Positions 4,699 through 53,343 of a DNA stretch of 62,912 bases are shown piece after piece. A model generated the notes under the pieces. That model did not search any database. It worked only from the letters and a program-made list of their open reading frames with translations, and was not told the origin of the DNA. The DNA is from Candidatus Thorarchaeota archaeon (lineage in GTDB: Archaea > Asgardarchaeota > Lokiarchaeia > Sigyniarchaeales > SOKP01): positions 1-62,912 of the forward strand of contig JBHLQY010000001.1 in NCBI GenBank assembly GCA_048883105.1, in the 5' to 3' direction. Within the stretch, counting starts at the first letter, position 1. Every line of letters starts with the position of its first letter. Position numbers and translations under genes: made by a program.

Positions 4699-7206
4699 CT
4701 AGAGCTTTATCGGACGACTATTAGCTTGGAATACTGGTCCTATAATTTGACTGTAAAGCTTAGAGTATTGCTCTTGGTTGCTGATAATGGCTACCATTTC
4801 CGTTTCTTTTGTTGTCACGGGCGCAAGGATTACCTCTTCAGCATCTCGTGTTACAGCAAAAAAATCTCCCGCTCCAGTTAAATTGCGAAATTGAATGTTT
4901 CCCAATTGCATCATTTTCTTAATGATATCTCCGTAGGTTGCCATATCAAAAGCAGATGTAAGCATAAATCTGGCTGCTTTTTTCTGATAAGCAAATTCAG
5001 AGATAAGTTGTAAAACTTCGGGTAATACTTTAGGCATAACAATTATGATTGAAGATTTGGTTCGATACACAGCACTTTTAACTGCTGCTATCAACGCATC
5101 TCTTCCAACAGTGTGCCATGTGTTAACAATTCCTTTATCTTCTTGAACGGAACTCGATGCATTATGAATATCTTTTAACTTTGTTTCGTTAGTTTCAGCT
5201 ATTTCAGTAACGTCGTCAATCGAGTTCATAAAATGAAGTGTAAAATCGGCAATAGCATCTTTTACATTCTGGGAAGTGTCCCGAGTTGTATTCGATAAAC
5301 TAGTTCGTAGGGTTTCAGCGTTTTCTTTATATTTATTTTTATGATCTTCGAGCATATTAGACAACACTTTGTCCATATCAGCTGATTCCTCGTTCCAGAG
5401 GTTAATTTCAGAGTCAATTTTTTCAGAAGTAATTGACTTAGATGAGTCAAAATCAGAACGAATTTTAGCTAAACGGCTATCTACTGTATTTTTATGTTTT
5501 GATTTGAAATCGTTTATGGTGGTAATTTGATTATTGCATTCAGTGGATACATCACTTTTACCTCCAGAAAATTTAGAATCCACATCTTTGACCCAATTAT
5601 CATTCTTTGTTTTTATATCGGAATCAAAAGCAGTATAATGTTTTAACGATTGTTCTTTATGTTCATTTATCGCTTCGTCATAATCCTTATGGTGCTGTTT
5701 TAATGTATTTTCTAGGGAATCCTTCAACTTTATTGTGGTATCAGAACAGTCTTTTACTCCACTCTGCAAAGTATCATCGATTTCACTTGCCATATCTGTT
5801 GCTAAAGTATCTAATTCTGCACTAATCGTTTCCTGTGCTCTTTTGTCAAGGTCTGTAGTTTCTGTAGTGAGAGAACTATTTTCACTGGACATAGTTTCTG
5901 TTACTTCTCCTTTCAATTCATCTGTAGTTGACTGGGTATCGTTGATATATTTATCGCAATCATTAACAAAATCGTCTTTAAATGGTCTTGAAATTGATGC
6001 TACTTTTTGCTCTATTACCTTCCAATCGTTAATAAATCTCATTTTTTTCTTTTTTCCAAAGAAAAAACCTACTTTCGTGATTGCTTCTGAAAAATCACTA
6101 AAACGATTTGAAGTATCAAGAAGGTTTTCAAGCAAAGTAAGAGCACTATTTTTATATTCATTTACTTGATTTTGAAAAATTGAATGTCGATCCTCAACTT
6201 TAGAATGTATATCTGACTCAACCCTACTTGTCGTGCTTTTCACATGGTTAATATGTTCCGATAATAATTTTGAGATTCTATCTTTTAAATCTGTAATAAT
6301 TTTTTCCATTCTTTCTAAATATTTTTCAAGAATTTGTTCCATTTTAGGTTTAAGCTCGTTCGCAATATTTTTATGCCTCTCAACGTGGTCATCTAAATCC
6401 TTTTTCAATTCTTTTTCCAAATTTTCGACACGAGATGAAAAATCTCCTAATAATTCGTCGACTAAACTATTTAAATTATTATTAGCGGTAGTTATAGTCG
6501 ATTCATTATCACTTACAAAAGAACTAGAAATATTCTTAAGATCAGTGTTTAATGTGTCTAAGATATTATGAATGTTATTTTCCAGACTTCCTGTAGAGGT
6601 ATTTTGTGCCTCCTTAATTGCCTCTAATTCGCCATCCAACTGATCTGCATCAGCTTTTAATTCTGAATAATCTTTCTCAATATTATCGTGAAGTTCTTTT
6701 TCTAAAGTTTTAGAAGTTTCGGTAAACCGGTTGGTTGCTTTATCAATTCTGGCTTTTTTATCAGAATTTTTTGCGTCAGAATCATCGAAAAAAGCCTTAA
6801 CTTGAGTAGCTACCGCATTCTCAACTTCCTCGATACTTTTATTTTGAATTGATTCAAGCTTCTCAAATCGACTAGATTGATCAGCTAGAGCATTATCTTT
6901 AGTACTAGCAATCTCATTTCTAAACACTTCGGATTCATTCGTAAATAATTCAAAATAAGGTTCCAACGGGACATATCTATCTACAATACCTTCTATTTTT
7001 TTTAAGAAGTTATTTTCCACGAGTTTTTTGGTTATTTCTTCAACACGAGAATACTCAATCTCACCCTCTTCAAAATACATTAGTACTTCAGATATTGTGG
7101 CTTGAGGTACTCCTAGATATTTTATGTAAACACTTATATCCTCTTCAGTCAATCCGTAACGAGTGAAGATTTCTTTAGTTATCTCTTTTAGAGACATATT
7201 TTTCAC
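4699..7206 (-). CDS. TrmB-family-like protein with a ~580-aa helical/coiled-coil insertion (835 aa)
   Basis: The N-terminus (YGLTEEDISVYIKYLGVPQATISEVL...EEITKKLVENNFLKKIEG..RYVPLEP) matches the TrmB winged-helix pattern. The C-terminal ~140 aa (WHTVGRDALIAAVKSAVYRTKSSIIIVMPKV...FFAVTRDAEEVILAP) resemble the TrmB C-terminal domain. The middle is a long S/T/D/N/E/K-rich helical region. Confidence 0.6.
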   Translation of the reverse strand: MKNMSLKEITKEIFTRYGLTEEDISVYIKYLGVPQATISEVLMYFEEGEIEYSRVEEITKKLVENNFLKKIEGIVDRYVPLEPYFELFTNESEVFRNEIASTKDNALADQSSRFEKLESIQNKSIEEVENAVATQVKAFFDDSDAKNSDKKARIDKATNRFTETSKTLEKELHDNIEKDYSELKADADQLDGELEAIKEAQNTSTGSLENNIHNILDTLNTDLKNISSSFVSDNESTITTANNNLNSLVDELLGDFSSRVENLEKELKKDLDDHVERHKNIANELKPKMEQILEKYLERMEKIITDLKDRISKLLSEHINHVKSTTSRVESDIHSKVEDRHSIFQNQVNEYKNSALTLLENLLDTSNRFSDFSEAITKVGFFFGKKKKMRFINDWKVIEQKVASISRPFKDDFVNDCDKYINDTQSTTDELKGEVTETMSSENSSLTTETTDLDKRAQETISAELDTLATDMASEIDDTLQSGVKDCSDTTIKLKDSLENTLKQHHKDYDEAINEHKEQSLKHYTAFDSDIKTKNDNWVKDVDSKFSGGKSDVSTECNNQITTINDFKSKHKNTVDSRLAKIRSDFDSSKSITSEKIDSEINLWNEESADMDKVLSNMLEDHKNKYKENAETLRTSLSNTTRDTSQNVKDAIADFTLHFMNSIDDVTEIAETNETKLKDIHNASSSVQEDKGIVNTWHTVGRDALIAAVKSAVYRTKSSIIIVMPKVLPEVLQLISEFAYQKKAARFMLTSAFDMATYGDIIKKMMQLGNIQFRNLTGAGDFFAVTRDAEEVILAPVTTKETEMVAIISNQEQYSKLYSQIIGPVFQANSRPIKL

Positions 7207-12046: not shown

Positions 12047-12370
12047 ATGAAAAAGAAAGAAAATAATGAAGCTCGCGAAGAATACCAAAAAGTTCAAATC
12101 ATTAATTCAAAGCAAAACTATACCTCTTCTTATATTAAAGATAAATTAAAAGAATTAGAATTTGTTGCAGATGAATTAATTAAGTTTGCTATGTGGAGAT
12201 GGGAAAGAACTCCAAATAAGAAGGATAAAGTATTAAAAGAAACAGAAGAGTGGTTAACTCAGAGAATCGGACAAGGATCAATTGGACCAGCAACAGCTGC
12301 AGCGGAACCATTATTAAGAGAAAAATTAGAGGAATTGCGTTCATTATTTAATAAAGGATTCTATAAATAA
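12047..12370 (+). CDS. Hypothetical protein, 107 aa
   Basis: An ATG-initiated ORF in an otherwise empty interval. I recognise no motif. Confidence 0.4.
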   Translation: MKKKENNEAREEYQKVQIINSKQNYTSSYIKDKLKELEFVADELIKFAMWRWERTPNKKDKVLKETEEWLTQRIGQGSIGPATAAAEPLLREKLEELRSLFNKGFYK

Positions 12371-12425
12371 AATAAGAATATAATACATTTGTAATTGATA
12401 AATTAGATATTTTATATCATAAATA

Positions 12426-12947
12426 TTGAGTGCTAATATGATGATAGACCCAGAATTATTTTTAGAATTTTTGAAAGGAAGGAGGTCTATAAGGAATTTT
12501 CAAAGCAAACCTCTTTCCGATAAAGATATAGATATGATTCTAGAGGCTGGTAGATGGACTCCGAGTGCATCTAATGTACAACCATGGGAATTTATTGTAA
12601 TTAAGAATCGAGACATCTTAAAGCAAATTTCTAAAACAGGAATCTATGGAGGTCCTCTGAGAAAAGCACCCATGGGAATTGCGATAGTAGGAAAAAAACA
12701 AGAAAATCCTAATTGGTATATTCAAGATACCTCCTTAGCTTCTATGAATATGATGTTAATGGCTTGGACTCTAAACATTGGTATGTGTTGGATGGGAAGT
12801 ATGGATAGAGAATTCGCTAAAGAATTGTTAGGGCTAGGTAAAGATGATTTTCTCTTAACAATTTTAGCTACAGGATATATTAGAGGACAAATTCCTAAGC
12901 CGAGTCTTAGAAAAAGCTTAGATGAAATAAAAAGAGAAATAATATAA
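12426..12947 (+). CDS. Nitroreductase family protein
   Basis: RRSIRNFQSKPLSDKDIDMILEAGRWTPSASNVQPWEFIVI is the canonical nitroreductase N-terminal motif (RRS.R.F....v....i..il.aa..APS..N.QPW.F.vv). The start could be TTG 12426 or ATG 12438. Confidence 0.78.
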   Translation: MSANMMIDPELFLEFLKGRRSIRNFQSKPLSDKDIDMILEAGRWTPSASNVQPWEFIVIKNRDILKQISKTGIYGGPLRKAPMGIAIVGKKQENPNWYIQDTSLASMNMMLMAWTLNIGMCWMGSMDREFAKELLGLGKDDFLLTILATGYIRGQIPKPSLRKSLDEIKREII

Positions 12948-12968
12948 AATCTATATTAATCTTTATCC

Positions 12969-14135
12969 TTAAATGGGTATTGTAACCTCGGCAAGTTCTT
13001 CAGGTGCTCGAGTGAGTTTCATATTTCCATCATCAGTGATTAAGACACTATCAGAGTGCCGAAAGCCACCTATGCCAGGAATATAGATTCCGGGTTCAAT
13101 GCTGACTAACATCCCAGGTTCAAGTTTCCGAATATAACCTTCAGCAATATATGGTGCCTCGTGTCCGGTGATTCCTAAACCATGTCCCGTGCGATGAATG
13201 ATGTAATCTCCATATCCTCGGTCAGTGATGAATTTTCGCACAGCCTTATCAATCTCATTCATTAGAGCTCCAGGCTTAGCGAGTTCATATGCTAAAGCCC
13301 TGGCTTCAAACATAACTTCAAAAGGTTTCTTGGCGTTCTCAGGAACAAATCCTAAAAAAAACGTTCTTTCAACCTCTACTCCGTAGCCATCTATTTGACC
13401 GCTCACAATGGAGACATGAGGTCCCCCATCCTCCATCTCTTGAAAGATAGTGGGAATTTTATGAGGATCATGAGAGATTTTTGGTGGCCAAACAGCTCCA
13501 ACAACTCTTGTTACAATCATATTTGCGTTAGGAATATCTGCTACAATCTTTTTCGTCATAGCACTCGTTACTTCTTGGTATATTGCGAATTCCAGCACCT
13601 TAGGTTTGCAAACCTTCAATAGAACTTTATGGCCTTTATTTACTACTCGGCAGGCATGAATGGTCCGCCCAATCTCGTAATCAGATTTTATGAGCCGCAC
13701 CTCTTCTATAATATCAGATATTATTTTCTTTCCGGGTGTTTTTTCATAAATTCCCATAGGCATGGCTGATTCTATTCCAACGCAGGTATTCTCCTTTACA
13801 AGAGAGCGATAGTAATCAAACCAATTCTTTCCTTCAGGTGCAGGAAACTCGTAATAGCTTAAGAAATCTAAATCGCACCGAGCTCGAGTCTCAACGTGGA
13901 CTTTTTCTAATAGAGGGACCACCATTTTTGGAGTTCCACTTTTTGTAATAACTAAAATAAAAGGACGCTCGTGGACGTAATTGGCAAAATTGGTAAGGAA
14001 ATATATGTTAACAGGGTCAAATGAGACATAATAATCTAAGTTCTGTTCCTCCATTAAACTTCTCACCTTTTCTAATCGGTGAGATAATTCTTCTCGGCTC
14101 GGTGGTGTTGTAATAGGTTTAAGGTGACTATTCAT
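12969..14135 (-). CDS. M24-family Xaa-Pro peptidase (creatinase/prolidase fold)
   Basis: The C-terminal catalytic pattern is present: GYGVEVERTFFLG ... HRTGHGLGITGHEAP ... LEPGMLVSIEPGIY...GGFRHSDSVLIT. Confidence 0.8.
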   Translation of the reverse strand: MNSHLKPITTPPSREELSHRLEKVRSLMEEQNLDYYVSFDPVNIYFLTNFANYVHERPFILVITKSGTPKMVVPLLEKVHVETRARCDLDFLSYYEFPAPEGKNWFDYYRSLVKENTCVGIESAMPMGIYEKTPGKKIISDIIEEVRLIKSDYEIGRTIHACRVVNKGHKVLLKVCKPKVLEFAIYQEVTSAMTKKIVADIPNANMIVTRVVGAVWPPKISHDPHKIPTIFQEMEDGGPHVSIVSGQIDGYGVEVERTFFLGFVPENAKKPFEVMFEARALAYELAKPGALMNEIDKAVRKFITDRGYGDYIIHRTGHGLGITGHEAPYIAEGYIRKLEPGMLVSIEPGIYIPGIGGFRHSDSVLITDDGNMKLTRAPEELAEVTIPI

Positions 14136-14231
14136 TTTATTTAACCTCTTATCTCACGAAATTTACCTTAATATTTAAAAAAATTGACTAATATTATTAA
14201 TTAGCATCTTTCGAAGAAAAAAATAAATAGA

Positions 14232-15131
14232 TTAGCTTAAAATAAAACCATTATTTTTTTTTTCAATTAAATTTTTTTTTAGAAATTTATCAAAATGCTT
14301 TTCAATCATTATTCTTTCAGCTATTATTTCGTATGTTTCCCATTCACTGTATCTTTTATATATAATATTTTTTTTAATCAAATCCTGTGGGTTTAATGGA
14401 TTCTTTTCTGAAAGATACGACAAAACACATTCGTCATTTTTATATATAATTGATTTATAATTCTCTAATTCTTCTTTTATTAGTTTCTTACCTTGAAATA
14501 TTCCTTTATGACTTGAAATTGCGAGTTCTATATCTATATTCTCTAATTTTTCTACAGATTCTTCATAATCAATTAAGTTTGAATCAATACACCCATAAAA
14601 AATAAACCTCGTGAGATCAATATCCGCTAAAAAAGCAATTTTTGAATTTTTTTCATAAAAACAACAATGACCCGCGGTGTGACCGGGAGTATGAATCACT
14701 TTTAATAGGTAATTGTTAATTTCAATTAGTTCATTATGTTCTATCGTTTTACTTATTTCGGTATTTTCTATTTTATACCCTTCTATAATTGGATCTAATG
14801 CATTTTCTGCAATTGTACCATCCAGGCCGTAATAGGGGATCATTTTATTTATATCTTCTATAATGTGCTTATCATCACCGTGGCATAAGTACATAGCATT
14901 TTTAAATAATCTATTACCTGAGATATGATCTTCGTGCCAATGACTTAAAATTATGCAATTTATGGAGAAATTTCTTTTTAATTTGCGTAAATGTTTGCTT
15001 GAAACTCCTGTATCAATTAGATAATCTCCAATTAACATTGAGTGGGAATATGGATATCTTCCATCCCTTTCACCTCTAATAAAAAAAATGTCCTTAAACT
15101 CATCTGATAAAGGTTGTATAATATCCTTCAA
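14232..15131 (-). CDS. MBL-fold metallo-hydrolase
   Basis: The HxHxDH motif occurs as ILSHWHEDHISG, and a downstream VIHTPGHTAGH metal ligand motif follows. Confidence 0.75.
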   Translation of the reverse strand: MKDIIQPLSDEFKDIFFIRGERDGRYPYSHSMLIGDYLIDTGVSSKHLRKLKRNFSINCIILSHWHEDHISGNRLFKNAMYLCHGDDKHIIEDINKMIPYYGLDGTIAENALDPIIEGYKIENTEISKTIEHNELIEINNYLLKVIHTPGHTAGHCCFYEKNSKIAFLADIDLTRFIFYGCIDSNLIDYEESVEKLENIDIELAISSHKGIFQGKKLIKEELENYKSIIYKNDECVLSYLSEKNPLNPQDLIKKNIIYKRYSEWETYEIIAERIMIEKHFDKFLKKNLIEKKNNGFILS

Positions 15132-15233
15132 AAAACATGCCTTAATTAAGAGAATTGGTTATGATAAAGATTTTAATCTCTTAAATTTTTACATTTTTTG
15201 CGTTAATTTTAAAGTTTCTATATTATTATTAAA

Positions 15234-15410
15234 TTATTTTAATGCGTAATAGCAACGTTTAGGAGAATGAACCTTACCCTGTTCCCTTAATTCTTTAATA
15301 ATTTTAGAAACTTCTTTTGATTCGATACCAGTTTGCTTTGCGATATCTCCTGGTCGTAAAGGCTTATTAGAATTTTGGAAAACTTCCAACACTTTATCTT
15401 TTTCTGTCAT
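15234..15410 (-). CDS. Small winged-helix DNA-binding protein, 58 aa (not in the supplied ORF track)
   Basis: My minus-strand translation is MTEKDKVLEVFQNSNKPLRPGDIAKQTGIESKEVSKIIKELREQGKVHSPKRCYYALK*. The pattern (L.pgeIA...g.....V.k.i..L...G.v) is typical of a wHTH, and the ORF has an ATG start. Confidence 0.5.
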   Translation of the reverse strand: MTEKDKVLEVFQNSNKPLRPGDIAKQTGIESKEVSKIIKELREQGKVHSPKRCYYALK

Positions 15411-15515
15411 AAGTTTATTTCAATCAAAAAGGTTTAAAAAAATTTTAGTATTAAATAAAATTTTTCAGTCAGTTAAGTTATTTTCTTATTTATCATTATA
15501 TTCTAAATCTTTAAG

Positions 15516-16535
15516 TCAAACTATTTTACTCTGTTCAATAGTATCTTTGACTTGAAATTTGAGATGATCTTGAACGAAATCTCCGATGCTTTTCCACGCT
15601 TTTATGCTTTCTTCTAAATCATCAGCAAAACTCTGGAAAACATGAGTCATTCCTTCATACACTTCTAAAGTTACATCAACACCAGCTTCTTTTGCCCTAT
15701 CCGCCAATAGTATTGAATCGTCTAAAAGAACTTCAATACTTCCCGCCTGAATCAAAAGGGGAGATAAATCATGTAAATCTGCATAAACTGGAGATATAAA
15801 CGGATTTTTTAAGTTTTCCCTGTTTGCATATACTCTTGCCATAGGTTTTACTCCAACTGCTAATTCAGGCTCGTAATTATAATACTTTTTAAGAGATTTT
15901 CCTCGAGCTCGCAAATCAACCCATGGAGATTGCATAACCGCAGCTGCAGGCAATGGAAGTTCTAGTTCTCTAAGTTTTAACATAGTTGCCATCGTTAAAC
16001 CTCCACCAGCTGACTCTCCGCAGATTATTATATTTTTAGGATTAATTCCTAAATCTAACAACCAGTGATAAGCGTTTAAAGAATCTTTCAATGCCGCGGG
16101 ATAAGGATGTTCTGGAGCTAATCTATATCCTACATTTAAAACTCGCATTTTACATTGTCTTGAATACAAGTATGATGACCAGCGACGTGTTGGAAGGGTC
16201 CCCATAATGTACCCTCCTCCAAATAGATGAAAAAAGATCTTCTCTTCAGATGCTTGGGGTACATATATCCACTCCGATTGAACTCCTCTCGTATTGACAA
16301 TTTCAAACGCTACATTTTCAGGAATTCGCTTAGCTCTTTCAAGATCTAACGCAGCCGCGATATGTCGGTTATATTTCAATATTAAATCCCAATCGCACTG
16401 CATGCTTGTGATTACTTCTAATGATACCCCATTTTTCTTTGCGAAATCTTCACCCGCTTTTAACTGTAATTTAAAATCATTCTCTAATAATTTTCCTAAT
16501 TGAGGATGTACTTTTGAGACTTCTAGATACGACAT
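15516..16535 (-). CDS. Alpha/beta hydrolase, hormone-sensitive-lipase-type esterase
   Basis: The ORF has the oxyanion motif HLFGGGY (an HGGG variant), the nucleophile elbow GESAGG and a late MTHVF histidine. Confidence 0.8.
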   Translation of the reverse strand: MSYLEVSKVHPQLGKLLENDFKLQLKAGEDFAKKNGVSLEVITSMQCDWDLILKYNRHIAAALDLERAKRIPENVAFEIVNTRGVQSEWIYVPQASEEKIFFHLFGGGYIMGTLPTRRWSSYLYSRQCKMRVLNVGYRLAPEHPYPAALKDSLNAYHWLLDLGINPKNIIICGESAGGGLTMATMLKLRELELPLPAAAVMQSPWVDLRARGKSLKKYYNYEPELAVGVKPMARVYANRENLKNPFISPVYADLHDLSPLLIQAGSIEVLLDDSILLADRAKEAGVDVTLEVYEGMTHVFQSFADDLEESIKAWKSIGDFVQDHLKFQVKDTIEQSKIV

Positions 16536-16633
16536 GTAATTACCTCACAATACAATTAATTAAGTAATAGTTAAAATCTATAATTCAGCTTTTGATATAA
16601 TACTTCTTTAATGTTAAATATGAGTTAAAAAAA

Positions 16634-18118
16634 TTAATAACTTTTAGCAATATAGACTGTACATGTTGCTGGTTCTCCACAAATTATACAACTTGCGAAT
16701 TCGTGTTTTTCCTCATCCACTCGCTTCCCTCTCACAAAACCACCAACTTCTTTTTCGACAACTTCAGCGCAATGGTAGGCTTTCATGTCAATTGAGCAAA
16801 AGCCGCAACAAACTATTTTACCTTGTTCAATTGCCTCTTTAGCAGAATCTTTCTCATAACACAATTCAATTTGCTCTTCAAAATCAAGTAATTTTATTTC
16901 TTTTATCTCCTTAGTGAAGTTTCTGGCTAGATTATCAATTTTTGTTTCTAAATCATTCTCGCTAACAATATATTTTTGCCCATCGTGTCTTTTTACAATA
17001 ACCACTTGTTTTTTTTGGATATCTCGCGGACCAACTTCAATCCTGAATGGCACTCCTTTCATTTCCCAATAATAAAATTTACTCCCTGGAGACTCATCTG
17101 AATCATCTAGTTTAACGAAGTATTTATCCCTAATTTTCTCATAAATTTTCTTACATTTTTCTAATACGTCCTTTTCTTTTCCTTTAACTAATATCGGAAC
17201 TATTACAACTTGTACTGGAGCTAGATCAAAGGGCAAAATTAAACCTTTATCATCCCCTAAATAAGCAACCATTGCCCCATAAATCCGACTAATAGCGGGG
17301 CCATAGCACGTTTGATAACCATATTTTTCTTTTCCATCTTTATCTATAAATTTCACATCGAATGGTTTAGAAAAGTTCTGACCAAGTAGGTGAGTTGAAG
17401 GAAGTTGCAGCACCTTACCAGATCCCATAAGAGCATCCGCTGCGTATGTAATTATCGCACCAGCGAATTTATCCCATTGAGGGCGTTCAAAAAAGATTAT
17501 TGGAATACAAAATTCATCCTGAAGCATTTGATAGGTCATTTCCATGTCTTCGTGGACTTGAGCGATTGCCTCCTCTTCTGTGGAAAAAACATCGTGGGCT
17601 TCTATCCAATGAAATTCTCTACCTCTAAAAAATGGACGTGTCATTTTCCCTTCATATCGCCATACCTGACATGATAGGTATCTTTTGAATGGCAAATCTT
17701 TATAACTTCGAATCCAAAGGCTATACATTGGATATAGTGCTGTTTCACTTGTGGGACGAAGCGCTAATTTTTCGTTTAAAGGACCGGAACTTCCTGCCTC
17801 AGTAACCCAAAACACTTCAGGGGCAAAGCCTTCCACGTGGTCTGATTCTAAAATAAGATTACTTTCGGGAATTAAAGAAGGCATTGTTAATGGTAAATGG
17901 CCATTTTTTTCTAAAAGGTCCTCATATTTTCTATACATTTTCCTAATGCTAATGGTAGCCCAAGGTCTATAACAAATAAATCCTTTTACATTATATCTAA
18001 TATCTGCCAGTTCAGCTTTATTAATAACTTCTGTATACCACGCTGAGAAATCCTCTTCTTTTGAAACTGTTATACCTGTTATTGGAGATTCTTTCTTCTT
18101 TTTAGCCATAGTTATCAT
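16634..18118 (-). CDS. proS: Proline--tRNA ligase (archaeal/eukaryotic type)
   Basis: The class II motifs are present (FSAWYTEV..KAELAD...VKGFICYRPWG-like, LRPTSET, WRYE...TRPFFRGREFHW.EAH). The C-terminal zinc-binding extension ends in ...YIAKSY. Confidence 0.9.
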   Translation of the reverse strand: MITMAKKKKESPITGITVSKEEDFSAWYTEVINKAELADIRYNVKGFICYRPWATISIRKMYRKYEDLLEKNGHLPLTMPSLIPESNLILESDHVEGFAPEVFWVTEAGSSGPLNEKLALRPTSETALYPMYSLWIRSYKDLPFKRYLSCQVWRYEGKMTRPFFRGREFHWIEAHDVFSTEEEAIAQVHEDMEMTYQMLQDEFCIPIIFFERPQWDKFAGAIITYAADALMGSGKVLQLPSTHLLGQNFSKPFDVKFIDKDGKEKYGYQTCYGPAISRIYGAMVAYLGDDKGLILPFDLAPVQVVIVPILVKGKEKDVLEKCKKIYEKIRDKYFVKLDDSDESPGSKFYYWEMKGVPFRIEVGPRDIQKKQVVIVKRHDGQKYIVSENDLETKIDNLARNFTKEIKEIKLLDFEEQIELCYEKDSAKEAIEQGKIVCCGFCSIDMKAYHCAEVVEKEVGGFVRGKRVDEEKHEFASCIICGEPATCTVYIAKSY

Positions 18119-43064: not shown

Positions 43065-46000
43065 ATGATATTTTATTTACCTTGGTTACCAGATTTTTCA
43101 TATTTTGAGCATAAGATAAAAAGTCCATTTAATCTAGATAAGACTTTTAGTTTTTTAAAGCGAAAAATTAGTGATAATGAAATTTTTGAGTCAAATGAAT
43201 ATCTCTTCTGGATCCTTATCTTATTATCTCATATTAACAAATTAGATTTAGTAGATGAAAAAGCAATCAAAAAATACATCTCAGGGTTAAAATATCACAA
43301 AGGTGGATATAAATTTTCAGACAAATTTGAGGAACCTGATATATGGAGTACTTTTTATTGTATAGCTACCTTGAAATTATTAGAACTTGACGATCTTATA
43401 GAAGATGATGATATAGAATTCATTAAGAACTCTCAAAGTCTTGGATCTGGAGGTGATGGCGGATTCTTTCATTGCAGCGCTAGAAACTGTTATATTAATT
43501 GTGATAGAAAAACTTCCGTGAAATCTAGTTTTTTTGCGCTTTCAACTTTAAAATTATTAGAGAAATTAGATGAAATTGACAGAGCACAATTAATTAAGTA
43601 CCTGAAGAAAAGTACTTTAAATAATATAGATTTAATTTATCAAATTTTAAGCCTAAAAATTTTAAACGAGATAGACAATATTATTTTAGAGAAACAAATT
43701 CCAATTATTCTCTCATGGCAAAAATTAAGAAGTGGATTTGCGATTGAAAGTAAAGTCCCTTCAATCGAAAATAATTTTTGGCCACTAATTTGTCTCGAGT
43801 TATTAAAGAAATTAGATTTAATTGATTTTGGAGGAGTACTTGGCTTTATAAGATCCATGGAAGACGTTGATGGTGGGTTCACAGATCAATATACCAGTCT
43901 TAGTAAAAATGTACCAAACATACGGAGTACCGCCCAAGCTCTTCTTTGTATACTTTTTATTTGGAAAAGACTTATTGAATTCATTGAAAATGAAATTCTT
44001 ATCCAATTAAAAGACTCGTCTGAAATCGATTTGATTCTTATTAGCGATAAATTTTCAATACCGGTGAAATTCGTAAAGGAAATTGCAAATTGGATGATAA
44101 AAAACGAATGGATTAATGGAGAAATATTCAATAGAAAAAAAAAATTTAATAGTTATTTTGATAAGCAGAATGCGATTACTCAAGAAATTATTAATGAAAT
44201 TATGGGAATTTTCAAAAATAAGCCAGGACAAAAGAGACTTAATTTGAATGAATTTAGTAAAAGTTTCGACTTTTCTAATGCATTAGAACGAGTAAAATTG
44301 GTGGTTAATGATTTAATTATTAATAAATTTTTAATAGGTAATATAGTAACACAAAAAAGAGAAACCTTTCTTGATAATTTTTTAGTCCTTGGAGAATATA
44401 TTCGTCTTACTAAGCCTCTTACTACTTATGTTGAAATAATGGATGAGAAAAAAAGGTTGGAAGATGCAAAAAGTAGTTTATTAAATATCCACACAAAATT
44501 AACTAATTTTTTACGAAAAAGTTCAGTTGAGTTAAAAATACTTATTGATCAAGAAAAAATTTCTGATACAAAAAAGAAATTACACGATAATTGTGAATAC
44601 GTTGACACTCAAATTCAAAAATACGAGAAGCTAATAAATCAAATTAATTCTGATCATATCTTTGTTAATTCTAAATTATTAAATCTCAAATTTGATAGAT
44701 ATTGGCCTATCATTAAAAGTTCTATTGAGAAATGCTTTTCAACATTTAAATCAGAAATAGATGAAAAAATCAAGAAAAAAGAAGAATTTATTACTGAACG
44801 GCTTGAAAAAGCTAGAAATCAAGAAGCAATTAAATCAGTAGAGAAAATTTTACATGATATTGAAATAGAATTAATTCAATATGGTGTTCAAATAAAGGAT
44901 TTCTTCCAAAAGAATTATACAAATCACGGAAGAGTGCTCTCACTAATTAAAACCATATCAGATTATATTAAGAAATCAGATTCTAAAATAAGATCAAACA
45001 TTTCAAAGAAATCCAAGATTATTAAATTCGATGAATTTAAAAAAGAACTCGATGAATTAAAAATCTCGTGGACGAAAAGACGTGAAGAATCAAAAAAAGT
45101 TATTCAATTTTATCAAAATATAATTAATAAACGAGAAGAATTAGAAAAATATATTGCTGATAACGTTTCCCTTCTTCAAAAATTTTCTGATGAGATAAAT
45201 GAACAAATCTCCAGTTTGGTAAAAAAGAATGAAATAAAAGAAGCTTCCAATATTTTATATAAGAGTATCAAGGAATTCCCCGAAATCTCCTCAAATAAAA
45301 ATGAAATTTTCTATGTCTCTGTAGATCAGATAAATCAAGAAATTTCTGAATTTCCAAAATTTTCTTCTGATATTAAAGCAGTTTGGAATAAAAAATTAGA
45401 AGATCAGAAAAGTAAATGGGTTAATGTTACATTAGCATTAAAAGAAAAACTCTATTTAGGGAGGGAATCTGATAAAAAAGATGAATTGGAACAAGATTTA
45501 AAAGATAATATCGGGGATATTAAAAATTCTATTGAAAATATGAAAAAAGCTACACATGAATTAATTAAAAAGAAATATATAACTGATGCTGAAAACAAAA
45601 CCCGTGAAACTTATATAAAAATAACTAAAAAAATAGATAAGTACAATCAAAAATTTAAAGATTTTATTAAAACATCCACCACTGAATTTATATCATTTAG
45701 AGAAACAGTGAAAGATTTAGTCGAAAATTGGGAAAAAGAAAAGATTAATTTAATCATACTTTTAAATAAAGCTAGAAACGAATTACTAAATGAGATAGAA
45801 AACACTAGCTCCACAGAAAAAAAGGGAGAATTGCAAGCATTAATTAAAACTTATGCATCTAACTTAGAAACCAATATAAATCAATTAAAATCGAATTATA
45901 ATCAATTTATTCAATCTGGGAAAAGCTTAAGTGAGTTTGAATCTAAATTACAAGCAGAAATCTTTAAAGTAAGAGATTCTTTAAAATTAATTGATAATCA

Positions 46001-46805
46001 AATAAAAAGTTTTATTAAAAAGGGTTCTCGAAATTACGAATCATTTCACGAAATAATTGAAGAAGAATTAGAATTATGGAATAATTCTAAATTATCAATA
46101 GAAAAAAAATTTGAAGCGGTCATTAATTGGATTAAAGAAGATATATTCATTAATAAACTTCAATTCTTCGTCAAAGCATTCAAGGATAATAAAGTTAGCA
46201 TTAATTACTTATCTAAAGTGCTGAATATGAAGTTAGAACCTTTAAAAATGAAATTAATTACGTTAATTTCAAATTCAAAGCTTAAAGGAAAATTAGATTC
46301 CAATGCTGATATGTTTATATTAGATGAAGAGCTCGCTCCCAAGGAATTTTCAGGTAAAGGAATAAAAGGTGAAGAGAAAAAAGAAGAAATGGATCCTATC
46401 AAACGAGATATTCTAAGCTTGCGCTATATAATCGTTATTCAAAATAAAATGGGTGCTTCAGTGTTTAATAGAAAATTAGGTGAATGGTATATGGATTCCG
46501 AACTTATTGGAGGATTTTTGACAGCTATACAAGATTTTAGTTCAGAAATTAAGCAAAAGAAAATTCCAATGAAGAGGATGGAATATAGAGATTTTGAAAT
46601 TATTTTAGAACAGGGTAAGTATACTTTTTCTGCATTATTTATTGATGGAGAAGAGACAGACTGGCTCCGTAGTAAATTACAGTTATTTGTAGAAGAATTC
46701 GAAAAAGTCCACGAAAAAAGCCTTAAACATTGGAAAGGTGAACTTGGGTCTTTTAGAGATTCTAGTTATTTAATTGATAAAGTTTTTGAATTATATCGTT
46801 TATGA
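43065..46805 (+). CDS. Giant multidomain protein (1246 aa): prenyltransferase/terpene-cyclase-type alpha-alpha toroid repeats + winged-helix modules + long coiled coil + C-terminal longin/roadblock-like domain
   Basis: About five N-terminal repeats have the form L..yi...Q...GGF......pd....T..al..L.ll..ld. Examples are ISGLKYHKGGYKFS..PDIWSTFYCIATLKLLELDD, IKNSQSLGSGGDGGFFHCS...SSFFALSTLKLLEKLD and IRSMEDVDGGFTDQY...RSTAQALLCIL. wH-like segments follow, then ~650 aa of coiled coil. The last 131 aa (RYIIVIQNKMGASVFNRKLG...LIGGFLTAIQDFSSEI....MKRMEYRDFEIILEQGKYTFSALFIDGEE...RSKLQLFVEEFEK) have a longin-like pattern. Confidence 0.6.
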   Translation: MIFYLPWLPDFSYFEHKIKSPFNLDKTFSFLKRKISDNEIFESNEYLFWILILLSHINKLDLVDEKAIKKYISGLKYHKGGYKFSDKFEEPDIWSTFYCIATLKLLELDDLIEDDDIEFIKNSQSLGSGGDGGFFHCSARNCYINCDRKTSVKSSFFALSTLKLLEKLDEIDRAQLIKYLKKSTLNNIDLIYQILSLKILNEIDNIILEKQIPIILSWQKLRSGFAIESKVPSIENNFWPLICLELLKKLDLIDFGGVLGFIRSMEDVDGGFTDQYTSLSKNVPNIRSTAQALLCILFIWKRLIEFIENEILIQLKDSSEIDLILISDKFSIPVKFVKEIANWMIKNEWINGEIFNRKKKFNSYFDKQNAITQEIINEIMGIFKNKPGQKRLNLNEFSKSFDFSNALERVKLVVNDLIINKFLIGNIVTQKRETFLDNFLVLGEYIRLTKPLTTYVEIMDEKKRLEDAKSSLLNIHTKLTNFLRKSSVELKILIDQEKISDTKKKLHDNCEYVDTQIQKYEKLINQINSDHIFVNSKLLNLKFDRYWPIIKSSIEKCFSTFKSEIDEKIKKKEEFITERLEKARNQEAIKSVEKILHDIEIELIQYGVQIKDFFQKNYTNHGRVLSLIKTISDYIKKSDSKIRSNISKKSKIIKFDEFKKELDELKISWTKRREESKKVIQFYQNIINKREELEKYIADNVSLLQKFSDEINEQISSLVKKNEIKEASNILYKSIKEFPEISSNKNEIFYVSVDQINQEISEFPKFSSDIKAVWNKKLEDQKSKWVNVTLALKEKLYLGRESDKKDELEQDLKDNIGDIKNSIENMKKATHELIKKKYITDAENKTRETYIKITKKIDKYNQKFKDFIKTSTTEFISFRETVKDLVENWEKEKINLIILLNKARNELLNEIENTSSTEKKGELQALIKTYASNLETNINQLKSNYNQFIQSGKSLSEFESKLQAEIFKVRDSLKLIDNQIKSFIKKGSRNYESFHEIIEEELELWNNSKLSIEKKFEAVINWIKEDIFINKLQFFVKAFKDNKVSINYLSKVLNMKLEPLKMKLITLISNSKLKGKLDSNADMFILDEELAPKEFSGKGIKGEEKKEEMDPIKRDILSLRYIIVIQNKMGASVFNRKLGEWYMDSELIGGFLTAIQDFSSEIKQKKIPMKRMEYRDFEIILEQGKYTFSALFIDGEETDWLRSKLQLFVEEFEKVHEKSLKHWKGELGSFRDSSYLIDKVFELYRL

Positions 46806-48925: not shown

Positions 48926-49028
48926 ATGTAATGATAAGATTGAAGGCATATATATAGACGCTAGCTTTTATATATGAGGCAAAGGAACTTCTAATTTTAT
49001 TAAAATTAAAAAATAAATGTGAATTTTT

Positions 49029-51104
49029 TTAATCTTCCTTATACATGTCTTCTTGATCACTGTAAATGCCTGCGTTTGGATCGAGAAATTGGTTTTGACA
49101 TGCAGGACAGGAGTTATATTTTGATAACCAAAATGCTACGCAGAGATAATGATAAACTGCTTCACAGAAAGGACATTTTATTATCTGTTCTTTTGCGAAA
49201 TCAAATTTTTTATGGCAAACTCCACATTTTATTTTGTCTGAGGTGATCCCTTCTCTAACTTTTACTCTCTCAGATAGAGTTATCTCTAAATTAGTTAATT
49301 CTGTTCGGTATAGATCTATTTCATTACTTAAATTCTTAACTCTTGATTTAATTTCAGTTATTCTCTCGTTTAATTCCTCTTCTGTTAATTTATCGAATAA
49401 AAAGGTTGATAACGCAAAATTTAATGGCATTGCATCAGTTGTATCCTTTTGGTCCGTGATTTCTGTTATGCGTTCAAGCATTAGATCTTCTTCCTCAATT
49501 AGCTCCTTAAAATTTTTAAATAACTTATTAAGTATCATAGACAATAAAAAGGTTAATTGCTGTTTTTTAAAATTGAAGTTATCTTCCCATTGCTTAATAA
49601 TTTGATAAATATCAATGTCCTTTTCTTTATATAAATCTATTTTTTTATAAACATCATTCTTAATTTTCTTAACACTAGATTTATACTTACTAAGAATTTC
49701 ACGAATTTGTTTTAATTGAGGAAATTCTTCCCGTACTATTAAAGCTGTTTCATCTTGATATTTACTCATTAAATCATTGACTTCCGAAATCTTTTCATAA
49801 ATAAAATTCCTTACATGATCACGTAATCGTTCTTTTCTAACTGATTTTAGATAATATAAATACTCTTCTTTCCTTCGTGTTATTTCAGTAAGAACATTAT
49901 CAATAATTTTTTCATATGAACTTGTTATTTCCCCATACGGTTCCAAAGAAGATTCAAAATCTCCGAAATGACGATTTAATTCCTCTACTAACGAATAAAA
50001 GATATCCACTTTTTCAGAATAATACTTAATGACATTTTTAAACTCGTCGTACTCTTTCAAATCGCTAATTGTAGCGTGATATTTCTTTTCTAAACCACTT
50101 AAGTAATAATCTGCTATTTGGGGTAAATATACGCTAACTTTTTGTTCTAAAACAGTTTTTAAATTTATTTTCTTTTTATCCTCTTCTAATGTAAAATTCT
50201 TATCTAGCTCATTTATTTCATCTAAAATTGCCTTTAATTTATTCTCAATTAGAGATTTAATAATTGGATGAATAAATTTTTTTAATTTCTGAATAATTTC
50301 TTTTCTATCTACAATATTTACGTATTCATCGATATCCTCAACCTCTTTAACTTCTTCAATTAGAGTGTTCTGAAATAGAAGAAAAATTAAATCAGAATAA
50401 ATCTCAATTTTCCCGTCTTGTTTTTTGTTATAAAACTGATATATATCAGCAAAATATAATGTTAAATATACTCCCTTTTTTTTCTTTTTCTTCTTTTTAA
50501 TAACCTCTCGATTAGAATCTTCAATGAAATCGTAAAGTTCCTTTATTTCATTCCATTTTGTCAACGCACTTGGAAACTCGTTAATCTTTAAGTTTAAATT
50601 TTTGATTTTATTTGCTTCAATCCAAATATACGAAATATTATCATAAAGACCCTCATACTTATATTGAGATTTCTCAAGTTCTGAATAAAGTTCATTAAAT
50701 TCATCAATAAGACTTTGAATTGTTATTAAAAACTCATCTAAAAATGAATTTTGTTTCAAAAGTCTCTTAATATTTCGACAATTTAATTTTAGATTTAGTA
50801 AATTATTTGAATAGAGTTTAATTTCTTTTAAAATTCCTGATTTTAAATTATGAAAATTATTTTTTTCAGAATTGTCTTTAGGTGTTAAATATATGTCAGT
50901 GAAATCTCTTATTTCTTCAAAATAATTTGAGTAATAATTGAGAATTTCTCTTTGGAATTTTGTCTTTAAAAAGTCATCAATCTCAGGTGAATCTGGCTTT
51001 TCTATCTTAAGTTTTTCTATATTTCTTTTAATATCTAATATATCTTCCTTAGAAAATCCTTTTATTTCCCGAACATCATTAAAAACATTATCAGTTAATT
51101 TCAA
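49029..51104 (-). CDS. 691-aa helical/coiled-coil protein with a C-terminal C4HC3 RING/PHD-like zinc finger
   Basis: The C-terminus reads CGVCHKKFDFAKEQIIKCPFCEAVYHYLCVAFWLSKYNSCPACQ, which is C-x2-C-x13-C-x2-C-x4-H-x2-C-x10-C-x2-C. The H..C...WL.....CP.C tail is typical of RING-type E3 fingers. The rest is helical, with a K8 run. Confidence 0.65.
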   Translation of the reverse strand: MKLTDNVFNDVREIKGFSKEDILDIKRNIEKLKIEKPDSPEIDDFLKTKFQREILNYYSNYFEEIRDFTDIYLTPKDNSEKNNFHNLKSGILKEIKLYSNNLLNLKLNCRNIKRLLKQNSFLDEFLITIQSLIDEFNELYSELEKSQYKYEGLYDNISYIWIEANKIKNLNLKINEFPSALTKWNEIKELYDFIEDSNREVIKKKKKKKKGVYLTLYFADIYQFYNKKQDGKIEIYSDLIFLLFQNTLIEEVKEVEDIDEYVNIVDRKEIIQKLKKFIHPIIKSLIENKLKAILDEINELDKNFTLEEDKKKINLKTVLEQKVSVYLPQIADYYLSGLEKKYHATISDLKEYDEFKNVIKYYSEKVDIFYSLVEELNRHFGDFESSLEPYGEITSSYEKIIDNVLTEITRRKEEYLYYLKSVRKERLRDHVRNFIYEKISEVNDLMSKYQDETALIVREEFPQLKQIREILSKYKSSVKKIKNDVYKKIDLYKEKDIDIYQIIKQWEDNFNFKKQQLTFLLSMILNKLFKNFKELIEEEDLMLERITEITDQKDTTDAMPLNFALSTFLFDKLTEEELNERITEIKSRVKNLSNEIDLYRTELTNLEITLSERVKVREGITSDKIKCGVCHKKFDFAKEQIIKCPFCEAVYHYLCVAFWLSKYNSCPACQNQFLDPNAGIYSDQEDMYKED

Positions 51105-51219
51105 AATAAAGACACCTTAATCAGTAAGATGTTCTAAAGCAAAATTGCCGTTAGTCAGTCTAGTAGTTATAAAATGGAAAAATTTTAAATTTTTCTATTC
51201 AAAAAAAGCGTTTAAAAAA

Positions 51220-51837
51220 TTATTCCCCAAGTTCTTTAATTTCAATGTGTTTTTCTTTGGCTCCGTCTTTTGTTATCGTTAAAATATCAATCCCATCCCC
51301 AGACATTGCATCTCTTGCTATGGCTACTCTAATTGCTTTTTCTACTAATGCTTCACCCGCTTCAACACTTATATCAGGTTTATATTCTGCTTCAAGGATT
51401 CCTATTGATAGCAGCATTCCTGTTCCAGCAGTACCATAATCGTCCGGCATTAACGAACCAATTGCGTCGAGTGTGTAGAGTTTAGGACCGTCTTTATCCA
51501 TTCCCGCAATTACTAAATTGGTATATAGTGGAAACATTTTTCGTGAATATAAATAATTTGAAACTAATTTCCCCATACTTTTTGTTGATATCCTCTCCCC
51601 AGCATCTAATAAATATAAATTAGCTTGTGCTTTCATAATCTTTACTAAAATTTGCCAGTCTCCTATAAGACCATACGCAGCTAAGCCAATATTATCTGTT
51701 ATCTTAAATAATTTTCTTGTTGATTTGTTTGCTACTGTATATCCCCACGTTGCTCGATTATCGTTGCCAAGGACAACTCCATCTAGACATTTAATTGCTA
51801 CTCCACATGCACCAGGTACAATAATTTGCTGTGCCAT
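51220..51837 (-). CDS. psmB: Proteasome beta-type subunit lacking the catalytic Thr1
   Basis: The 205-aa ORF aligns position by position to the archaeal beta subunit: PG-ACGVAIKCLDGVVLGNDNRAT... versus TG-TTTVGITLKDAVIMATERRVT.... Asp17 and Lys33 equivalents are present (GNDNR; TRKLF), but Thr1-Thr2 are replaced by Ala-Cys. Confidence 0.8.
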   Translation of the reverse strand: MAQQIIVPGACGVAIKCLDGVVLGNDNRATWGYTVANKSTRKLFKITDNIGLAAYGLIGDWQILVKIMKAQANLYLLDAGERISTKSMGKLVSNYLYSRKMFPLYTNLVIAGMDKDGPKLYTLDAIGSLMPDDYGTAGTGMLLSIGILEAEYKPDISVEAGEALVEKAIRVAIARDAMSGDGIDILTITKDGAKEKHIEIKELGE

Positions 51838-51924: not shown

Positions 51925-53343
51925 CTATATAGCTTGAAATTCTTCATCAACAATTTTATCTATACGTCCTAAAAATTTTGTAGCACCATTTAAAATAAAT
52001 TTTGGGGCGAATTTTATAACCCACTTGAATTTTGGATATTTGAGCAATCCGACACTATATTTTTTAAGAAGAAATTTTTTATTATAGAAAGATCGATAAC
52101 TCTCAGATAGTAATTCTTGAATATCATCTACTGTTAAATCTGGTGTAGACATTATCGGCTTCACATGGCCAACTTTTCTATTTTCCCATTTATGGTCTTT
52201 TTCTACCCAGCCTTTTTCAACAGCTTCATAAAATAGTTGAGTACCAGGAAAAGGGGTTATTGGACTAGTCATCATAAAATCTATATCAATATCTCTCATT
52301 AATCTAAAGGTTTCTCGAGTATCCTCCTTTGTTTCTCCTATATTACCAACGATAAAGCTCCCAAAGGCTATTATCCCATTTTTATGACATATTTTAACAC
52401 AATCTCGAACTTTATCAAGAGAATATCCTTTCTCCATACGATCTAAAGCCATCTGTTTGAGGCTCTCAAATCCTAGGAAAAAGCATATGAATCCACTTTT
52501 ACGCATTTCTTTCACCATGTCAGGGTTATCTGCAATATCATCTACTCGTGCTTGACATGCAAACATGAAACGTTTACTAAGATTAGTTCTTTGAAGCAAT
52601 TCACATATTCTCATGATTCTTTTTTTGTGCATCGTGAAATTATCGTCAACAAAAAAGATGAGTTTAGTTTTTGGTGGAACTTGAAATAATTCCTTAATAA
52701 CACGTTCGGGCGTTTTTGTTCTATACGTCCTATTGTAAAATTCATGAACACAACAAAATCTACAGCTAAACGGACAGCCCCTCGAAGTTTCACAGACCCA
52801 GGCAGGAACCCATAAATAATGGTAAGGTTCATGCTCTACAAGTTCATTTCGAGGAAATGGTAATTCATCTAAATTTTTAATAAAAGGTCTATTAGGATTG
52901 TGATACACCTTTCCATTTTCTCTATAAGATAATCCTAAAATTTCTTTTTTTGGCTTACCGCTTAAAAGTTCCTTAAATGTTATTTCACCTTCTCCCCTCA
53001 CAACCATATTAATACAATCGTATCGATCAATAATACTTGGATCTAAAGTAGGATGGAATCCTCCTAATATAGTCTGTATTTTGTTTCTTTTTGCCAATTT
53101 ACAAATATTCAAAACCATTCTAAAAGAAGGCGACATACATGTAATTCCAATTAAATCGTAATTAATTAATTTTTTTTCCATTTCCTTAATTCCATAAGAT
53201 TTGTCAATATTTAAATCAAGGATATCAACTATATGTTCGGGTATAGCACCAGCCAACGTTAAGATATTTAGAGGAGGGCTGCACATTATAGCTCCCATTC
53301 CTTTGCCAGACGGAAATGGTGGATATATCAATAGAATTTTCAA
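51925..53343 (-). CDS. B12-binding-domain radical SAM protein
   Basis: The N-terminal B12-binding-like Rossmann segment (KILLIYPP...DLIGITC) is followed by ETSRGCPFSCRFCCV (CX3CX2C) and typical downstream elements. The start is TTG. Confidence 0.8.
   Translation of the reverse strand: MKILLIYPPFPSGKGMGAIMCSPPLNILTLAGAIPEHIVDILDLNIDKSYGIKEMEKKLINYDLIGITCMSPSFRMVLNICKLAKRNKIQTILGGFHPTLDPSIIDRYDCINMVVRGEGEITFKELLSGKPKKEILGLSYRENGKVYHNPNRPFIKNLDELPFPRNELVEHEPYHYLWVPAWVCETSRGCPFSCRFCCVHEFYNRTYRTKTPERVIKELFQVPPKTKLIFFVDDNFTMHKKRIMRICELLQRTNLSKRFMFACQARVDDIADNPDMVKEMRKSGFICFFLGFESLKQMALDRMEKGYSLDKVRDCVKICHKNGIIAFGSFIVGNIGETKEDTRETFRLMRDIDIDFMMTSPITPFPGTQLFYEAVEKGWVEKDHKWENRKVGHVKPIMSTPDLTVDDIQELLSESYRSFYNKKFLLKKYSVGLLKYPKFKWVIKFAPKFILNGATKFLGRIDKIVDEEFQAI

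Follow-up and report, generated by a model that had tools for sequence, protein, structure and literature searches.

An archaeal gene whose product ends in a zinc finger like those of E3 ubiquitin ligases, and which lies directly downstream of a proteasome beta-type gene, raises the question of whether and how ubiquitylation in archaea is wired to the proteasome. The window analyzed here is the entire 62,912-bp contig of an NCBI metagenome-assembled genome (MAG) labelled 'Candidatus Thorarchaeota archaeon' (locus tag ACFFDO_00245), and we use the name RING691 for the 691-aa protein encoded in it at 49029..51104 on the minus strand. The protein is genuine and is conserved among the Lokiarchaeota (Promethearchaeota in NCBI), it is most likely a RING-type E3 scaffold, as predicted from its finger, and its coupling to the proteasome is suggested by the noncatalytic beta-type subunit that its neighbor appears to encode. 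We give a probability of about 0.4 to the combined reading, in which RING691 is the RING-type E3 scaffold of an Asgard ubiquitin-like (Ubl) system and the proteasome is its favored partner or target.

The finger reads CGVC-HKKFDFAKEQIIK-CPFC-EAVY-H-YL-C-VAFWLSKYNS-CPAC, that is, C-x2-C-x13-C-x2-C-x4-H-x2-C-x10-C-x2-C, a pattern with no other occurrence in the six frames of the window; seven of the eight Cys of RING691 fall inside these 43 residues. A sequence-only reading of the same DNA had described this pattern at the same place, and it is confirmed: all eight ligands are kept in 118 of 118 complete homologues (spacing 13/4/10 in 116 and 14/4/10 in 2), and they are also kept in relatives at 13 to 23% overall identity. 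In an alignment spanning three tiers of the family (13 to 62% identity to the query), seven ligands and Pro676 do not vary, and C630, W659, and P667 are nearly invariant. The positions expected to contact a ubiquitin-conjugating enzyme (E2) are kept as well, namely, V/I629 two residues after the first Cys (C1+2), W659 on the central helix, and P667 in the last knuckle, all three conserved across the core family and almost so among distant relatives. Of the tail that follows the last Cys, the part x-N-x-(F/Y)-x-x-P persists in distant relatives and in small single-finger proteins.

The AlphaFold2 (AF2) model built from the last 80 aa has a beta-beta-alpha fold, with a predicted local distance difference test score (pLDDT) of 84 to 92 in the core. 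RNF126, RNF12/RLIM, and RNF165 bound to ubiquitin-charged E2 (E2~Ub) head the Foldseek matches to this model, with a root mean square deviation of 1.6 to 1.8 Å over 47 to 48 columns; RNF4 and EL5 come next, and the top 50 comprise 48 RING or U-box E3 domains and 2 PHD fingers. The model and its RING-led matches argue against a double zinc ribbon, the fold that the sequence-only reading had named as fatal to its proposal, and for a RING-like cross-brace with the eight ligands of a RING. The likeness to RING-H2 E3 ligases that it had noted is also borne out by a PDB sequence search with the finger, in which nearly all matches were RING-H2 E3 ligases, RNF126 being the best (E=2e-6), followed by EL5, ARK2C/RNF165, RLIM, Arkadia, ZNRF3, and RNF38; the family profile gave the same outcome.

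Within the cross-brace fingers this one is a hybrid. Its ligands 3 to 6 (C-x2-C-x4-H-x2-C) have exactly the PHD spacing, in keeping with the PHD ligand rule (C4HC3, x4-5), and everything after ligand 6 is RING-H2-like, with C-x3-W-L on a helix, an x10 spacer, and a C-P-x-C knuckle. Of the RING-variant/PHD spacing proposed earlier, the PHD part at ligands 3 to 6 therefore stands, and neither the RINGv assignment nor a full PHD assignment (spacer, Trp, and score) does. RING-CH/RINGv fingers (C4HC3, MARCH type) have C-x-C-x7-H at ligands 3 to 5, unlike the C-x2-C-x4-H found here, and the RINGv model was not among the Pfam matches at E<=1 (with the full protein, all 13; with the last 90 aa, the best 25 of 32). 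With the last 90 aa, PHD (PF00628) scored 22.8 bits, below its cutoff of 24; Prok-RING_1 (PF14446) scored 26.1 bits against a cutoff of 29.1, over profile positions 4 to 34 of 54 only; and Rubicon homology (PF13901) scored 23.9 bits against a cutoff of 28.1, over the last ~50 of 206 profile positions only, a full domain of this kind having several zinc clusters in ~200 residues. The reading that fits the finger best is that of a variant RING whose E2-binding face is of the RING-H2 type.

The gene upstream encodes a proteasome beta-type protein in which the position of the Thr1 nucleophile is Ala, rarely Ser, in all loci compared (~75 species). The best PDB match of the window's copy is 6z46_H; aligned to the Archaeoglobus fulgidus beta subunit, G-TTTV pairs with G-ACGV (…VPG-A-C-G-V…), and the score against TIGR03634 (PsmB) is 206.1 bits, below the cutoff of 224 for the catalytic beta family. 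On these sequence features we take the neighbor to be a noncatalytic beta subunit, which points to a dedicated noncatalytic beta paralogue in Lokiarchaeota and perhaps to Lokiarchaeial 20S particles with mixed beta rings, as in eukaryotes.

We compared 81 non-redundant loci by tblastn, 75 of them informative for the upstream gene. The same-strand arrangement and the 115-bp spacer seen in the window are as the sequence-only reading had them, and the order can now be made explicit, with beta upstream and the finger gene downstream. The beta gene lies directly upstream of the RING691 gene in 74 of the 75 informative loci, which come from different species, at a gap of 81 to 307 bp (median, 121); of the 7 loci among the 81 without beta upstream, six are cut by a contig end and one (L026) has a different upstream gene. 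The junctions on either side are often broken, with histone-to-beta distances above 1 kb in 10 of 52 loci and RING-to-LysE distances above 1 kb in 32 of 75. Since the beta-RING691 junction has stayed intact while its flanking junctions were often interrupted, the adjacency looks selected.

The family is large. A search of ~5.8 billion proteins returned 164 matches, and the 120 listed are 675 to 707 aa long apart from three partial or shorter ones; most records are annotated only 'hypothetical protein', and many homologues carry a precomputed zf-RING_2 (PF13639) match. A scan of one genome per species placed relatives in at least 173 species genomes, and those with names are nearly all labelled Promethearchaeota or Lokiarchaeia, within the Asgard kingdom of NCBI. 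HMMER search of 1.84 billion representatives gave 541 matches in four groups: the core family, a second tier of 650- to 800-aa helical proteins at 150 to 270 bits, a third tier at 50 to 90 bits, and many proteins of 60 to 190 aa consisting of finger and tail only. The exact finger spacing recurs in 82 of 149 representatives inspected, and, given the many small proteins with finger and tail alone, this pair behaves as a mobile domain unit. The small proteins (P0351, P0358, P0365, P0370, P0372, P0382, and others) read …C-P-x-C-Q/L-N-x-F/Y-L-x-P, and some have N-terminal zinc ribbons or membrane segments. At one third-tier locus (L091, 10393-11844, plus strand), the gene directly after the homologue encodes a PQQ-like beta-propeller protein with a C-terminal RING-like finger of its own (zf-RING_2, 24.9 bits). 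We found no description of the RING691 family or of the beta-RING gene pair in the full-text literature, a search whose coverage left subscription journals outside; the family is thus undescribed, and Asgard RING-type E3s are already known as a kind. The taxonomic labels look unreliable: the MAG is labelled Thorarchaeota and sister MAGs of the series Hod-, Hermod-, or Odinarchaeota, whereas gene content, synteny, and closest relatives are those of Lokiarchaeota/Promethearchaeota.

RING691 is longer than the 640 aa first assigned to it. Its start is the TTG at 51104, with GGTG just 5' of it, and its N terminus is conserved, homologues aligning from residue 1 and most of them also starting with TTG. 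Across the family the start codon is TTG in most species and ATG or GTG in some, preceded by GGTG or GGGT (51102-51116 in the window; loci L001 to L086), and the wide retention of so weak a start suggests deliberately low translation. The protein is under purifying selection, with a ratio of nonsynonymous to synonymous substitution rates (dN/dS) of 0.22 against the sister locus L005 and 0.235 against L088, a locus that has no ubiquitin cassette at the site where the window also has none (see below); the ratio for beta is 0.05 by comparison.

The full-length AF2 model (pLDDT, 80; predicted template modeling score, 0.58) is nearly all helical, with three very long helices in the C-terminal half; residues ~320 to 690 are the part in common with the second and third tiers. 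The helix that runs into the finger has a clean heptad pattern of a/d positions (L578, I582, I585, V589, L592, I596, Y599, L603, L606, L610, and V614); it is therefore a reasonable candidate for a dimerizing coiled coil, and RING691 is probably a dimer. A Lys-rich loop is K/R-rich throughout the core family and partly so in second-tier relatives; its K8 block may serve for modification or binding, or may mark a tract prone to slippage. For the helical body, Foldseek of the full-length model against PDB gave no match below E=0.017, all that it found being designed repeats and coiled coils; hidden Markov model profiles of the core (A1) and extended (A4) families against PDB sequences gave RING matches and, for the rest, generic coiled coils only; and RING691 had no match in NCBIfam. 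Some 570 residues of RING691 are thus helical domains without a detectable relative. Coordinates of the features are collected in Table 1.

Table 1. Features of the RING691 locus, in window coordinates
Feature	Position	Strand	Details
RING691 gene, helical protein with C-terminal finger	49029..51104	-	691 aa, TTG start, TAA stop
C4HC3 cross-brace zinc finger, residues 627-669	49098..49226	-	Ligands C627, C630, C644, C647, H652, C655, C666, C669
Conserved tail after last Cys, residues 670-681: Q-N-x-F-L-D/E-P-x-x-G-(L/I/M)-(F/Y)	49062..49097	-	Conserved in core family
44-residue helix running into finger, residues 575-618	49251..49382	-	AF2 secondary structure and residue spacing
Lys-rich loop, K8 at residues 203-210, purine run including A8	50472..50498	-	pLDDT 58 in block
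Proteasome beta-type paralogue without Thr1 nucleophile	51220..51837	-	205 aa; PF00227, 3e-48
Beta-RING691 spacer, 115 bp	51105..51219	-	T6 51214-51219, T7 51201-51207, TATA-like AATTTAAA 51184-51191, GGTG 51113-51116
Empty cassette junction	48949..49008	.	blastn of window against L005; ~60 bp in window for L005 12097-17505 (5.4 kb)

In the closest clade (RING691 identity of 58% for L003, 62% for L012, 74% for L008 to L010, and 93% for L005), a cassette of Ubl, ThiF-type ubiquitin-activating enzyme (E1), UQ_con E2, JAB protease, and a zinc-finger membrane protein of ~380 aa follows the RING691 gene immediately, with one opposite-strand coiled-coil gene between them. In the sister genome GCA_048887225.1 the cassette is at L005 13176-16261. 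An Asgard cascade of E1, E2, and RING E3 has been reconstituted in vitro (bioRxiv 10.1101/2023.07.25.550441). By blastn the window is collinear with L005 at ~94 to 95% DNA identity, apart from the segment of L005 that carries the coiled-coil gene together with the cassette (12097-17505) and a radical-SAM gene of the window. The cassette-less junction also occurs in two independent assemblies (L087 and L088), and we rejected misassembly as the cause of the missing cassette because they share it; since clade members further removed from the window do have the cassette at this site, the simplest account of its absence here is a deletion. The radical-SAM gene, of the B12-binding kind (51925-53343, minus strand), separates the histone gene from beta in both the window and L087, is absent from L005, and marks a second insertion/deletion difference between near-identical genomes. 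A shorter form of the cassette also exists, and orthologues of the cassette E2 are widespread in Loki- and Helarchaeial genomes; no ACFFDO-tagged member was found in the clusters matched by the sister-genome E2, the MAG being incomplete and the names sparse. The last cassette gene (L005 16319-17455, plus strand) encodes a multipass membrane protein of 378 aa with the C terminus C-x2-C-x15-C-P-N-C-R-H-x2-H-x2-E-x3-W-x6-C-x2-C; by eye this finger has RING-H2 spacing with a Glu as ligand 6, and it shares with RING691 the extra Cys upstream. It showed no BLASTP similarity to RING691 (E=0.7) and no Pfam detection.

In the mechanism that we propose, RING691 would work as three parts: ~570 residues of helical domains, a heptad helix of ~44 residues that probably dimerizes, and the variant RING with its conserved tail. 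The finger would dock a ubiquitin-charged E2 of the Asgard Ubl-E1-E2-JAB system through the surface used by RING-H2 ligases (the Val/Ile at C1+2, Trp659, and Pro667), with the helical part providing the substrate or partner. It is the locking of the gene beside a noncatalytic beta gene that makes the proteasome the favored partner or target, and the contact might serve assembly, turnover, or substrate delivery.

Several observations weigh against this reading, and they divide according to whether they touch the proteasome or the ligase. RING691 may be a RING-type E3 that has no proteasome partner, the adjacency having been inherited within one phylum and the two genes being expressed and acting independently; we regard this as somewhat unlikely. 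The loci do come from one phylum, so that synteny is partly just inherited, and it is the whole block histone-beta-RING691-LysE that is syntenic, even though no connection of the histone or of LysE with proteolysis is evident. The sequence-only reading had listed a conserved terminator between the two genes, with uncorrelated expression, as counterevidence to its link, and the spacer argues for separate transcription units: runs of T5 to T8 sit just past the beta stop codon, with a T5+ run within 40 nt of it in 29 of 35 species compared, and a box of the form A(A/T)TTTA(T/A)(T/A) lies at -57 to -64 from the RING691 start in 28 of the 35, mostly at -63 or -64 (the TATA-like box of the window's clade is at -87). 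As this box is conserved at a fixed distance in a spacer that is otherwise unalignable among the 35 species, it looks like a TATA box that would give RING691 its own promoter, with the T-runs as putative oligo-T terminators; beta and RING691 are probably separate transcripts, and their co-transcription would not be required, though read-through may occur. A scan for sigma-70 promoters and hairpin terminators gave nothing above background; that model is not applicable to archaea, and the cross-species comparison of spacers replaced it. Loci of the second tier (L089) and third tier (L090 to L093) have no beta or ubiquitin genes within 8 to 10 kb, and the beta linkage is confined to the core family. 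The gene adjacency behind the E3-proteasome link that was first proposed thus recurs in the core family, and it has to be qualified in that the neighboring beta is apparently noncatalytic and the distant members lack a beta gene nearby. What inherited gene order explains poorly is that the beta-RING691 junction alone survived in nearly every locus, in species that have diverged to 43 to 50% protein identity; this is the pattern expected from selection on adjacency.

It is unlikely, to a greater degree, that the finger is a noncatalytic cross-brace domain, akin to PHD, FYVE, or Rubicon-homology domains, that binds protein, lipid, or nucleic acid, with RING691 serving as a structural scaffold or tether, e.g., an assembly or anchoring factor for proteasomes with the noncatalytic beta. 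The PHD spacing within a C4HC3 finger and the two PHD fingers among the top structural matches would fit this, and the literal consensus patterns of RING and PHD both fail on the finger, the canonical RING pattern matching nothing in the window. The zf-RING_2 score is just under the cutoff (27.1 bits on the last 90 aa against 27.3, and 22.6 for the full protein), and those for PHD, Rubicon homology, and Prok-RING_1 nearly equal it. In the HMMER alignment the second Cys of CPFC falls on canonical RING ligand 3 and the first lies three residues upstream, so that ligand 4 is displaced and the canonical His position is Ala or Ser. On the other side stand the RING-H2-like C-x3-W-L…x10…C-P-x-C on the helix, without the spacer of 12 or more residues and the Trp before ligand 7 of PHD, the 48 RING or U-box domains in the top 50, and E2-contact positions kept even in relatives at 13 to 20% identity. 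The linchpin after the last Cys is not basic, being Gln670 in the core family and N/H/G/S/L in relatives, not Arg/Lys. Mutagenesis of the archaeal E3 srfp showed I30, W58, and the linchpin R69 to be important, R69A impairing the protein (PMC5654768). The equivalents in RING691 are the conserved V/I629 for I30, the conserved W659 for W58, and Gln670 for R69; by this analogy Gln would speak against a strongly activating effect on E2~Ub. The Gln does not disqualify the finger, since the natural linchpin of RBX1, itself a true RING-H2 E3, is Asn (the PDB entry 6ttu is titled 'RBX1 N98R'). The ubiquitin genes themselves add to the doubt. In the 62.9 kb of the window, tblastn found no ubiquitin, E1, E2, or JAB gene; the conjugation homologues for which the sequence-only reading had proposed a search are thus missing from the contig. 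The site that holds the cassette in sister genomes is empty; RING691 nevertheless remains under purifying selection in lineages with no adjacent cassette, as a role outside ubiquitylation would allow. The cassette is not beside RING691 in most species. Elsewhere it sits at another site flanked by a resolvase and a DDE transposase (L094/L095, 2387-3481 and 17624-18528), which suggests that it moves as a unit, so its adjacency to RING691 in one clade may be incidental; and its own ~380-aa finger protein could, to judge from its C terminus, be its cognate E3. That the Cys/His pattern arose by chance in a spurious or decaying open reading frame can be dismissed: no support for it was found beyond the TTG start and the uninformative annotation of most records, and it is refuted by the full-length conservation in 164 proteins, the presence in at least 173 species genomes, the invariant ligands, the dN/dS of 0.22, and the confident AF2 model. 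A bolder version of the RING-type E3 reading, which we consider improbable, would make RING691 a proteasome-associated ligase that docks on or ubiquitylates 20S particles containing the adjacent beta paralogue, and its finger a surviving intermediate between PHD and RING-H2; if true, a prokaryotic RING E3 directly coupled to a heteromeric proteasome would predate eukaryotes.

Two other genes of the window encode long helical proteins. One (43065-46805, plus strand), three genes away from RING691, encodes a 1,246-aa protein with N-terminal prenyltransferase-like alpha-alpha toroid repeats, a long helical middle, and a PCI domain (PF01399, 7.5e-8, residues 1020 to 1086), and it is kept at the same place in L005 and L088; PCI is a typical domain of the proteasome lid, COP9, and eIF3. 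The other (4699-7206, minus strand) encodes an 835-aa protein with a TrmB-type winged-helix N terminus and a long helical region with weak apolipoprotein-like repeats.

Asgard archaea are already known to have RING-type E3s and operons of ubiquitin, E1, and E2, and reconstitution has been achieved for two archaeal cascades. If RING691 is an ordinary E3 with unrelated targets, it adds one more Asgard RING family. What distinguishes the family is its unusual ligand arrangement and its unusual, well-conserved genomic partner, and it is a concrete candidate for deciding whether and how ubiquitylation in archaea connects to the proteasome: the family is large, spans the phylum, lies beside a beta gene without the nucleophile, and in one clade also lies beside a ubiquitin cassette. 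Near-identical genomes with and without that cassette provide a natural experiment, and the combination of PHD-type spacing with a RING-H2 E2-binding face bears on the relation of the two eukaryotic finger families.

Compared with known systems, the window's beta, an archaeal beta with 6z46_H as its closest PDB match, resembles noncatalytic betas, including the inactive ones of eukaryotes, in having the beta-type fold and the equivalents of Asp17 and Lys33 and in missing Thr1; it differs in being paired with a RING-finger gene, a pairing not found described in the literature searched. Bre1/RNF20/40 and RNF8 are coiled-coil proteins with a C-terminal RING, and RING691 is analogous to them in architecture only, with a helical/coiled-coil body, a helix leading into the C-terminal RING, and probable dimerization; sequence and fold show no similarity beyond the finger, and RNF8 appeared only at E=0.14 in the family-profile search. 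The RING-H2 E3s (RNF126, EL5, RNF165/ARK2C, RNF12/RLIM, RNF38, and Arkadia) share with the finger the eight ligands and the predicted beta-beta-alpha cross-brace, the H-x2-C-x3-W-L central helix, the x10 spacer, the final C-P-x-C, and a hydrophobic residue at C1+2. They follow the canonical RING spacing, C3-x(1-3)-H4-x(2-3)-(C/H)5-x2-C6, from which the finger departs: in place of a His two residues beyond the canonical ligand 3, it has as ligand 4 a Cys three residues ahead of that position; its linchpin is Gln instead of Arg/Lys; its score is just under the Pfam cutoff; and it is joined to a helical body of ~620 residues for which no eukaryotic counterpart was detected. The archaeal RING E3s, srfp of Caldiarchaeum subterraneum (PMC5654768) and the Helarchaeial RING E3 (bioRxiv 10.1101/2023.07.25.550441), are also RING type, with the I30 and W58 equivalents present in RING691, and RING691 of one clade likewise adjoins a Ubl-E1-E2-JAB cassette; with its 691 aa, its Gln in place of R69, and its position outside the cassette and unlinked to it in most genomes, RING691 falls outside the small operon-encoded RING E3s. 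With PHD fingers (PF00628) it shares the C4HC3 set, the spacing of ligands 3 to 6, and the context (I/L)-x-C-x2-C-x3-(F/Y)-H, but the spacer between C6 and C7 is 10 residues as against 12 to 46 in PHD, and the Trp, instead of standing two residues before ligand 7, is at C6+4, on the helix after ligand 6, in the manner of RING-H2.

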